DNA of 64,000 nucleotides, taken from NCBI RefSeq assembly GCF_000026545.1, contig NC_011603.1; one strand, 5' to 3'. A program made the position numbers. This document shows positions 44,401-47,400 of the stretch, in pieces. This DNA comes from Escherichia coli O127:H6 str. E2348/69. GTDB taxonomy: Bacteria > Pseudomonadota > Gammaproteobacteria > Enterobacterales > Enterobacteriaceae. Numbering within the stretch: the first letter of the stretch is position 1; every line of letters begins with the position of its first letter.

Positions 44401-47400
44401 ACCACGCTGACGGGCGTAGTTGGCCAGACGACGGATAACCTCCGACTTACCGGCCCCGACAGTGCCGTGCAGACAGAAGTTCTGGATTTCAGAATCCCGG
44501 ATAATCGGCAGATCGCCAATCCGGATATCGGAATCCTTGCCATCTTTTTTCAGCATCCTAGCCACCTCTTTCGGATTGTCAGTCAGCTGACGACCACCTG
44601 TGATTTCATTTTCGCTCTGTTGTTTACCCTGACGCCCCAGAATCCAGGAGACAACAAAGAAGGTGATCAGGCAGATAACCAGGGCCACGACAGACGCCAG
44701 AACGAATGCCGACCATAACTGCTCACCGCACCAGATCATATATTTATCATGCAGTACCTGAGCCGCGTTCATCCGGAAGGTTTTGCCGTAATACTGGATC
44801 TCATAGACCGGCTGGGACCTGATTAAATCCCGCATGCCTTCCAGCGTGGTGCACCACCAGTAAATGCAGCCATTCACAAACGTCTGCCAGCTTATTTTTA
44901 CCCATAAAACCAGACCAACTAGGATCCAGAAAAAAATAAACAGGCAGTAAAGTATGATATTGGCGATCTGACTGAACATGCGGATACGCATGGACGCAAT
45001 CTGACCGCCCTGGGTCATATCCTTTGCGTTAAAACTCATGATGATCTTCCGAAGAAAAAAAGTCAGTCGGACTGATTATTAATGATGAAAAGATTAATAA
45101 CCGTTAAATTCCGGCTTCGCCGGCAACACTTCACGGTCGCACAAAGAATTTGCACAACCGCTCAGTGTTTTCATATTTATTTCGGAAACGCCGGGGAGAA
45201 ATAAAATTTATTTTATTTCTTTCCGGGGTTGGACAACGAGCAAAGCGAGGCGTCAGTCAGGAGGCCGGTCAGACCAGCCTCCGGAAGATAATCAGAGAAT
45301 ATTTGCGATTGATTTGGCCAGCTGGTCTTCGAGAACAGGCTTCGCCTCTTCAAATTTCAGGTTAACCTTGTTCGCACTGGAGACCACACGGGTCTGATAT
45401 TTATGCTGGTTACCTGTTTCAGTACTGGTCTGAATTTTCGCACCTGAAGTGCCCTGACGCAGGGCGGCAACATTATCTGTTGTCACCGTTGTCTTAGTAC
45501 GCTCTGCAATCTGCACATCCGTGATCATGGTATAGTTCACATCTTCCACCATCGCATCTGCAGCCATACCCACCAGACCAGCAGCAAGGCCCACACCGAG
45601 TGTGGCACCGGCAGAATTGGAATTATATCCGGTAATACCGGCACCTAACGCTGCACCAACAGCTGCGCCTTCATAACCACGGTTCAGCCATCCCTGAGAC
45701 TCCCGCAGATCCATCTTATCGGCCTTCAGCACATTCGCCTGAATCCAGTAGTAGGCTTTATCCGGAGAAGTCACCACCTGATACCCTTTTGCTTTCACAG
45801 CATCAGCAATTTTGCCCTGCAGCCCACTCATGTCTTTATCAGAGGTGTTTTTGATCTGCAGAAATACCGTGCGTTCGCTGGCGGGTTCAAGCCAGATGGT
45901 CTCACTCATCTGGGTCTTCACCTCAAGGTTACGCTTCTTGATTGCTGTGCTCATCGCACCACACCCTGAAAGGGCCAGAGTGGAACTGACCAGTGCAACC
46001 ATCATCAATTTTTTTGTTTTCATCCAAAATATCCTTTTAACTAACAGACTCTTTTTTGAACAGCCCTATTACTGAGGCTATAGCTGAGAGATTATAACGA
46101 TTTATGTCTATAGCATAAATAAAGAAAAAGATTATAAACAAAGCAATTAATAAAAACTCATATAAGAGTGTATGGGCAAATGAAACCATTGAAAAAGCAA
46201 TCAAAAATGACAAGATATAAGTTTTGTTCTTATCATACATAAAAGATATAACTTTCGACTCATCTCTGAATTTTTCAGGGATAGCAAGATACAACATCAT
46301 TCCATTAGTAATGGCAACAAAAAGGATAAAACCCATTACGCCACTAAAACATATATCAAATCCGGCATCTCGGATATCAACTTTATCTGCCAGCAAACGA
46401 AGAAATGTTGGCCATAATAAAACCCATAAAAACACATACCCCCCTGGCTTTATGACCTGTAATAATGGCGGGATATTAACCCCCTCTACAGAGAGTACAT
46501 CCTTTAGTTTCTGTGTCTCCATTTTTATATCATAGTGAGTGATCATAATGGCCCCTTCAGTCGTTCCTTTTTACCATCAATCATTTTTTTCACAGCCTCT
46601 CCTGATGGCTCAGGTATTATCTTTTGACTTTCTCGCTCTTCATTATATTTATTATTCTGAGATAATGCTTCTGTTTTATGGTGATTCTGCAGTTCAGAAT
46701 ACTGTCCTCTTACAATATTTTCCTCGCCATGTATGCTGTTCTGAGTATCACCTATATTCCCTTTATATTCTGTGACCATATTATCAACCTGATGTTTTAC
46801 ATCATTACGGATATTACTGTCCTGTGTTCTTTGATCAATAATGGCCTGATGCCCCTGATGGTCAGCAATAATATTCTGGCTGCCACCACCCGAAGGTACG
46901 CTCTCCATTCTTTTACCAATATCGCCACGGGATTCACGCCAGGCATTATCAACACCAGGTTGTACCTGTTCTTGCACAAAAGACCATGCCATCGCCCGAC
47001 GGCGTTCTGCAATCTCCGGTGAACTGGTGTTTGTCAGAATAGCTTCTGCATCCTGCGGCGCGTGTTTCATCACATACTGTGCAAACTGTTGCGACAGGTC
47101 TTCACTCATCTGCCCACTCATGCTTTCAGTACGGGATGCCATTTCAGCATATTCATGGCTGCGGGTCATATTCGTCGTGTACTGGTCGTAACTCTGTTTC
47201 GCTGAGTTCAGGGCTGCAGACAACTGGTCCACGCGGAAATCGGCATTATTGTCAGTATGGCTTCCGGATTCACTGACTTTGCGACTGGTAAAGTAATCGC
47301 TGGCCTCTTTAAAGTCCTTACTGGCTCTAGCGTCAATATCATGGCGAGCATCATGGGAAGCCCTGCTGCCACTACTGGCTTCATGTGAGTCCAGATCACT

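Follow-up and report, generated by a model that had tools for sequence, protein, structure and literature searches.

The traS gene in the transfer region of Escherichia coli O127:H6 str. E2348/69 raises two questions: why is it so much more AT-rich than the transfer genes on both sides, and which F-like plasmids would its product exclude? A sequence-only reading of the 64,000-nt stretch of DNA analyzed here (the window) had joined the two, proposing that the allele sets exclusion together with TraG and that a cassette-like exchange at this position would explain the shift in composition. In our analysis, the identification of traS, the TraS/TraG specificity, and the exchange all stood, but the exchange as the cause of the composition shift did not. 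We consider it very probable that this is an ordinary traS of the EPEC adherence (EAF) plasmid, lying in an old, multi-allelic, recombining cassette, and that its AT-richness belongs to the locus as a whole rather than to a recent import.

The region 45900-47000 was 100% identical to pMAR7 (NC_010862.1), an E. coli plasmid in which the same ORF is annotated as traS, and window positions 20192-64000 corresponded to pMAR7 25146-68954 with one mismatch. At ~20190-20200, the window does not carry the ~4.95-kb Tn3/blaTEM-2 transposon that is present in the deposited pMAR7 record. The absence of this Tn3/TEM insertion indicated that the match is to the untagged EAF plasmid of EPEC rather than to pMAR7 proper; judged from this match, the window is the EPEC EAF plasmid pMAR7/pMAR2, that is, pMAR7 without Tn3. 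The minus-strand gene order was traH-traG-traS-traT-traD-(vapBC, on the opposite strand)-traI-traX-finO, and the features around traS are the following.

46037-46546, minus strand: traS, encoding an entry-exclusion protein of 169 aa, the pMAR7-type allele of the F-type TraS family (ORF and pMAR7 annotation).
46543-49368, minus strand: traG, encoding a mating-pair stabilization protein of 941 aa, the donor-side partner of TraS (Pfam TraG_N, E = 2.5e-116).
45292-46023, minus strand: traT, encoding a surface-exclusion lipoprotein, the conserved right flank of the cassette (Pfam TraT, E = 5e-83).
42252-42877, plus strand: vapB/vapC (PIN-domain) toxin-antitoxin pair between traD and traI.

The interval 46037-46546, which had been named traS from the sequence alone, matched exactly the minus-strand ORF of 169 aa annotated as traS in pMAR7. 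The AT-rich gene is thus an annotated, ordinary traS, and both the gene and its role were already known. A vapBC pair between traD and traI is also annotated in F, so this arrangement is ordinary. Elsewhere in the window, Rfam matches above the gathering score were obtained on the plus strand for AS-traG (62 bits, 48564-48649), an antisense RNA within traG; for AS-traI (104 bits, 39245-39321), an antisense RNA within traI; and for CopA (103 bits, 32050-32141) in the IncFII replication control region.

No Pfam model matched TraS, and family membership came instead from NCBIfam: TraS scored 260.7 bits against the NF010304 (PRK13741) equivalog, above the curated cut-off of 173, with residues 1-168 aligned to profile positions 1-169 of 171, and its relatives from F and from a pKpQIL-like Klebsiella plasmid scored 221 and 227.7 bits, respectively. 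The location of the gene between traG and traT, with all three on the minus strand, is that of the F-like tra operon. TraS could be aligned with F TraS from end to end (26% identity over 167 aa, E = 5e-17) with a conserved N-terminus, and an alignment of eight members of the family contained 19 invariant columns. Kyte-Doolittle peaks were found at residues ~61-79, 110-134, and 128-146, with a weaker one at 36-54 that aligned with the first segment of F; TraS is thus predicted to be a small, strongly hydrophobic inner-membrane protein with three or four hydrophobic segments. The stop codon of traG and the start codon of traS overlap in the sequence ATGA (46543-46546, minus strand), and a GAAGGGG Shine-Dalgarno-like motif lies just upstream of the traS start, within the tail of traG. 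The annotations of p309074, p12-4374, and pRHB14 show this 4-bp overlap as well, whereas F and R100 have a gap between the two genes, of 32 and 15 bp, respectively. The overlap, together with the upstream motif, suggests that translation of traS may be coupled to that of traG here, unlike in F and R100 with their short gaps.

That traS is more AT-rich than its flanks was borne out by the GC content, which was 33.1% compared with 50.8% for traG and 50.0% for traT; by codon position, GC1/2/3 of traS was 39/28/32%, and GC3 was 55% in traG and 52% in traT (overall GC of traD, 52.4%). Among the 30 tra-region genes in the window, traS had the lowest GC, and it also gave the lowest GC over 510 bp in the tra region (36.9-64 kb), with the artA-like/trbA stretch alone coming close. 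Across the whole window, however, traS was not extreme (6th percentile), because the bfp/per region is AT-rich too. The most AT-rich part of the window was 16811-18991 (minimum 510-bp GC, 25.5%), the perABC regulator region according to the pMAR7 annotation shifted for the missing transposon. Within the tra region, the next-lowest values were those of the artA-like gene (33.7%), trbF (39.6%), trbA (40.8%), and trbE (41.1%); further small genes were also AT-rich compared with the core at 50-60% GC (traR 44%, trbG 43%, and trbD 43%), the AT-rich small genes spanning 50738-51118, 52273-52936, 53688-53945, 61213-61434, and 62081-62645. The traS gene is the extreme of this broader pattern of AT-rich small tra genes. 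A three-segment change-point fit over traG-traT delimited a tract that is longer than both the gene and the cassette described below.

45997-46842, no strand assigned: AT-rich tract, 33.6% GC (three-segment change-point fit over traG-traT).

The GC contents on its two sides were 51% and 53%, and the gain in log-likelihood over a single segment was 48, which indicated that the shift is genuine and well outside what chance would give. Compared with traS, the tract has ~300 additional bp, owing to its extension over the 3' end of traG: it takes in the last ~100 codons of traG, among them the conserved stretch 46637-46842. Two plus-strand antisense ORFs in the tract (46224-46535 and 45812-46075) were treated as chance ORFs.

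The cassette-like exchange proposed at traS was strongly supported by shared breakpoints, by differing slot genes in near-identical backbones, and by a contrast in dS. Homology by blastn to F, R100, pSLT-like, and four other plasmids ended at 46637, which is 31 codons before the stop of traG, and restarted at 46024-46045, at the start of traT; an identity profile in 60-bp steps gave the same limits.

46025-46636, minus strand: variable cassette, consisting of the last ~31 codons of traG, traS, and a 13-bp spacer with the ribosome-binding site of traT.

Near-identical backbones were found with different genes in this slot. Plasmid pWP2-W18-ESBL-08_1 was 99.3% identical over the 3.6 kb of traT-traD-vapBC, yet it carried an R100-family gene in the slot; pABW_A19b was ~100% identical over the 5' 1.8 kb of traG but had an F-type TraG segment and an F-type traS; and p309074 combined an R100-like 5' part of traG with a pMAR7-like cassette. 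In PLSDB, the two kinds of slot gene were about equally common, with 2503 records for NF010304-like TraS and 2581 for R100-like TraS. The TraT encoded here was 99% identical to the TraT of F and R100. A second mosaic block was observed in the 5' half of traG (48049-49008), which was only 72-88% identical to F/R100 and 97-100% identical to the Salmonella plasmid p12-4374 and to pABW_A19b; this block is independent of the exclusion cassette. In the distant F-like plasmid pE33_002 of Citrobacter freundii, the exclusion gene was followed not by traT but by a tetratricopeptide-repeat gene of 39% GC (4107-4781).

The ages of the alleles were addressed by their synonymous divergence. Within the pMAR7 allele family, traS dS was 0.18, 0.62, and >2 at 91%, 79%, and 65% protein identity, whereas the dS of traT was only 0.02-0.07 between plasmids with a traS dS of ~0.2 to >2; dN/dS of traS was 0.11-0.25. 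Gene-wide positive selection as the cause of the divergence was rejected by this low dN/dS and by a dS that was high or saturated. The high dS and low dN/dS of traS, set against the low dS of traT, indicated that the alleles are old and under purifying selection and not merely fast-evolving; by these comparisons, recombination has placed old traS alleles in a backbone that is far more homogeneous.

Although the exchange was well supported, it did not account for the composition shift, since an AT-rich gene occupied the slot in all 14 of the other plasmids examined. In each of them, the slot had a GC content of 31-41% compared with ~50% in the flanks, and this held across two non-homologous gene families, with the following GC contents of the traS slot.

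F: 34.7%.
R100: 37.0%.
pSLT-like: 38.6%.
Other R100-family alleles: 37-41%.
pMAR7-family alleles: 31-33%.
Klebsiella alleles: 36-37%.

A Klebsiella plasmid, p12-4374, F, and R100 likewise had an equivalent low-GC tract, which started 266-300 bp inside traG, and the traG stretch 46637-46842 of the window combined AT-richness with 92-98% identity to F and R100. Because all slot alleles examined are AT-rich and the tract reaches ~200 bp into conserved traG, the AT-richness is a property of the locus and not of a recent import; on these comparisons, it is a stable feature shared across the locus, and the ~100 conserved codons at the end of traG are part of it. Polarized substitutions within the TraS family comprised 20 W>S and 12 S>W changes; in this small sample of only 32 GC-changing events, the directions were roughly at equilibrium, with no strong drift either way. 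A search for earlier literature statements on the GC content of traS found none of relevance.

What keeps the tract AT-rich we infer; possible causes are selection for a regulatory role or a tendency of weakly constrained accessory tra genes. The first of these, under which selection maintains the low GC for regulation, is compatible with an old recombining cassette and would add a reason for its stable composition, and we regard it as possible, though improbable. Candidate roles include an independent traS/traT promoter, H-NS binding, and slow translation of a membrane protein that might be toxic. It would fit the AT-richness of both non-homologous slot families, the presence of conserved traG coding sequence within the tract, and a composition apparently near equilibrium in deeply diverged alleles. 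Promoter and terminator activities have also reportedly been described for traS/traT of F, going by the title of Jalajakumari et al. 1987. However, our consensus scan of 44900-47100 for promoters and terminators returned nothing on the coding strand: it gave no minus-strand sigma-70-like site and one plus-strand site, compared with 5.3 expected from shuffles, a result that weighs neither for nor against internal promoters. Nothing linking H-NS with traS was found in the literature searched, and no expression data were found. Moreover, other small, non-essential tra genes are AT-rich (trbF 40%, artA-like 34%, trbA 41%, and trbE 41%), which fits weakly constrained accessory genes rather than a function specific to this locus. 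A more specific version, to which we give somewhat less weight as an unlikely one, takes the AT-rich tract of the traG tail and traS as a conserved functional element, linked with the possibility that residues 115-145 of TraS serve in recognition. The tract could then be an H-NS-bound or promoter-bearing island that separates the expression of the exclusion genes from the rest of the tra operon, and selection would keep it AT-rich whichever of the two unrelated exclusion genes is present.

The explanation closest to the original proposal, that the cassette was imported recently from an AT-rich foreign source and has not yet drifted to the composition of the backbone, is very unlikely and has already been largely refuted. 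The sharp homology breakpoints at 46637 and 46024, a GC3 of 32% compared with 52-55% in the flanks, and the low identity of TraS to F TraS (26%) are what it would predict. It is contradicted, however, by the similar AT-richness of every slot allele, including that of F itself and those of the unrelated R100 family, by the extension of the tract ~200 bp past the breakpoint into traG shared at 92-98% with F/R100, by the finding of this TraS type, and likewise of its TraG segment, in ~150 plasmids each, among which are E. coli plasmids of APEC and bovine origin, and by substitution directions without strong drift to GC. A recent foreign islet was thus rejected, as the tract ends at ~46842 rather than at the breakpoint 46637 and the anomaly is common to all sister plasmids. 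That the low GC merely reflects which amino acids make up a very hydrophobic membrane protein is scarcely credible: Leu, Ile, Phe, Val, and Lys do make up 83 of the 169 residues and GC2 is 28%, but with codons chosen as in the rest of the tra genes, the gene for the same protein would have 44.6% GC compared with 33.3% observed, GC3 is 32% compared with 52-66% in the neighbors, and traX, whose product we take to be an integral membrane protein (it is annotated only as a pilus acetylase), has 57% GC. Amino-acid content explained ~45% of the GC deficit of traS and was rejected as its sole cause; the remainder is AT-biased codon choice.

The second question, which plasmids this allele would exclude, depends on the matching of TraS and TraG. 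That the two together set entry-exclusion specificity, as the sequence-only reading had stated in general, holds for F and R100, in which TraG residues 610-673 set the specificity, according to a passage of PMC9797247 that cites Audette et al. (2007). The corresponding segment of the window is given below.

47350-47541, minus strand: TraG codons 610-673, the exclusion-specificity segment by the F/R100 evidence (from alignments).

Overall, the TraG of the window was 90% identical to F TraG and 91% identical to R100 TraG; within this segment, residues ~617-652 (47413-47520) formed an allele distinct from both, and residues 653-680 were equal to those of F. Comparison of the alleles with F and R100, which had been suggested as the check, placed the locus with neither, but with a distinct and widespread type. 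Identity of TraS and TraG with the F alleles, which would have implied the F exclusion group and no exchange, was not what we found: TraS was 26% identical, and the TraG segment was a third allele. By sequence, the F exclusion group was rejected on this TraS divergence and on the differences at most positions of TraG ~617-652, and true F-type TraS alleles (98-100%) were present elsewhere, for example in pRHB08 and pABW_A19b. The R100 exclusion group was likewise rejected by sequence because TraS showed no similarity to R100 TraS and because TraG 610-673 differed throughout. R100 TraS had no BLAST similarity to the TraS of the window and no match to NF010304, and remote homology of the F/pMAR7 family to that of R100 was rejected by profile-profile comparison (hhalign probability, 0.2%).

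The PLSDB records numbered 148 for TraS at >=95% identity, 148 for the TraG segment at >=95% nucleotide identity, and 156 for the composite at >=95%. Direct inspection for linkage between TraS and TraG alleles covered 7 plasmids, and the linkage otherwise rests on the concordance of these counts: all five inspected plasmids with TraS at least 97.6% identical had an identical TraG 611-660, and both of the inspected plasmids with the 90.5%-type TraS had a different TraG segment. The agreement of the 7 inspected plasmids with the PLSDB counts indicated that TraS and the TraG segment form an established combination, and the pair was also observed in, for example, APEC and bovine-mastitis E. coli plasmids. 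The F and R100 precedents make it most likely that the pMAR7-type TraS and its own TraG residues ~617-652 define an exclusion group distinct from those of F and R100; the identity of residues 653-680 to F at the protein level makes partial cross-recognition with F possible. In p309074, p12-4374, and pRHB14, a near-identical TraG segment (codons 611-660) accompanied a TraS only 64-75% identical, which indicated that a strict rule of one segment to one TraS is not general in the family. The 16 differences between the pMAR7-type and 90.5%-type TraS were concentrated at residues 115-145, within hydrophobic segments three and four, and these residues could be a candidate region for reading the variable segment of TraG.

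Directly after the stop of traT, in the traT-traD spacer, two hairpins were found.

45197-45285, minus strand: two hairpins (RNA fold z-score, -4.4).

None of 200 shuffles folded as well, and an inverted self-match to F was present at 45187-45230. One of the hairpins is GC-rich and the other is AT-rich and palindromic, and neither has a clear U-run. The pair is a candidate counterpart of the terminator that has been reported downstream of traT in F.

Taken together, our proposal runs as follows. The slot 46025-46636 would be an old recombining cassette within a much more homogeneous backbone. Its occupants in different plasmids come from two protein families unrelated to each other and include many alleles that are deeply diverged, and homologous recombination in the conserved flanks would shuffle them. 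By the F/R100 analogy, TraS in a plasmid-carrying cell would recognize the variable TraG segment of a donor of the same type, and this recognition would block DNA entry. The exclusion function and the specificity of the pMAR7-type allele are themselves inferred from that analogy.

The variability of traS and the rule of TraG-TraS specificity were already established. Although of modest practical value, the assignment of the allele is relevant to which IncF plasmids could enter a cell with a resident IncF plasmid; EAF-type plasmids, along with ~150 further E. coli plasmids of this TraS type or with this TraG segment (among them APEC and bovine isolates), would be predicted neither to exclude F-type and R100-type plasmids nor to be excluded by them. 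The locus is also a clean example of a long-lived polymorphism in self-recognition, with very old alleles, two unrelated families, and fixed breakpoints. Because the GC dip at traS is constant across plasmids, it should not be read as recent transfer in genome scans.

A comparable system is that of SXT/R391, in which Eex, a small inner-membrane protein of the recipient, pairs with a short variable stretch of TraG from the donor, giving discrete exclusion groups. We know of no sequence relation between the SXT/R391 Eex proteins and TraS. Exclusion of the SXT/R391 type is said to be the subject of Marrero and Waldor 2007, going by its title. Compared with TraS/TraG of F, the locus described here has the same gene order traG-traS-traT, a TraS of the same family (NF010304) with a similar size and hydrophobic profile, a similarly AT-rich traS (34.7% GC in F), and vapBC between traD and traI; however, TraS is only 26% identical, TraG differs at residues ~617-652 and in its last ~31 residues, and F has the 32-bp gap between traG and traS in place of the ATGA overlap. 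A different exclusion specificity from F is therefore expected by analogy. Plasmids of the R100/pSLT type share the slot, its conserved flanks, the breakpoint at 46637, and an AT-rich gene (37-41% GC), but their TraS belongs to an unrelated family by BLAST, hhalign (0.2%), and NF010304; their TraS has three hydrophobic segments in its N-terminal part and a C-terminal tail that is hydrophilic and variable. The IncFII(K) TraS of Klebsiella (pKpQIL-like) resembles that of the window in its NF010304 family, its position, and the 36% GC of its gene, but it differs in identity, at 26-30% for TraS, 86% for TraT, and ~59% for TraG (compared with the intact traG of pF16KP0082). The identities of ~59% in TraG and 86% in TraT indicated that the Klebsiella plasmids represent a deeply separated backbone lineage.
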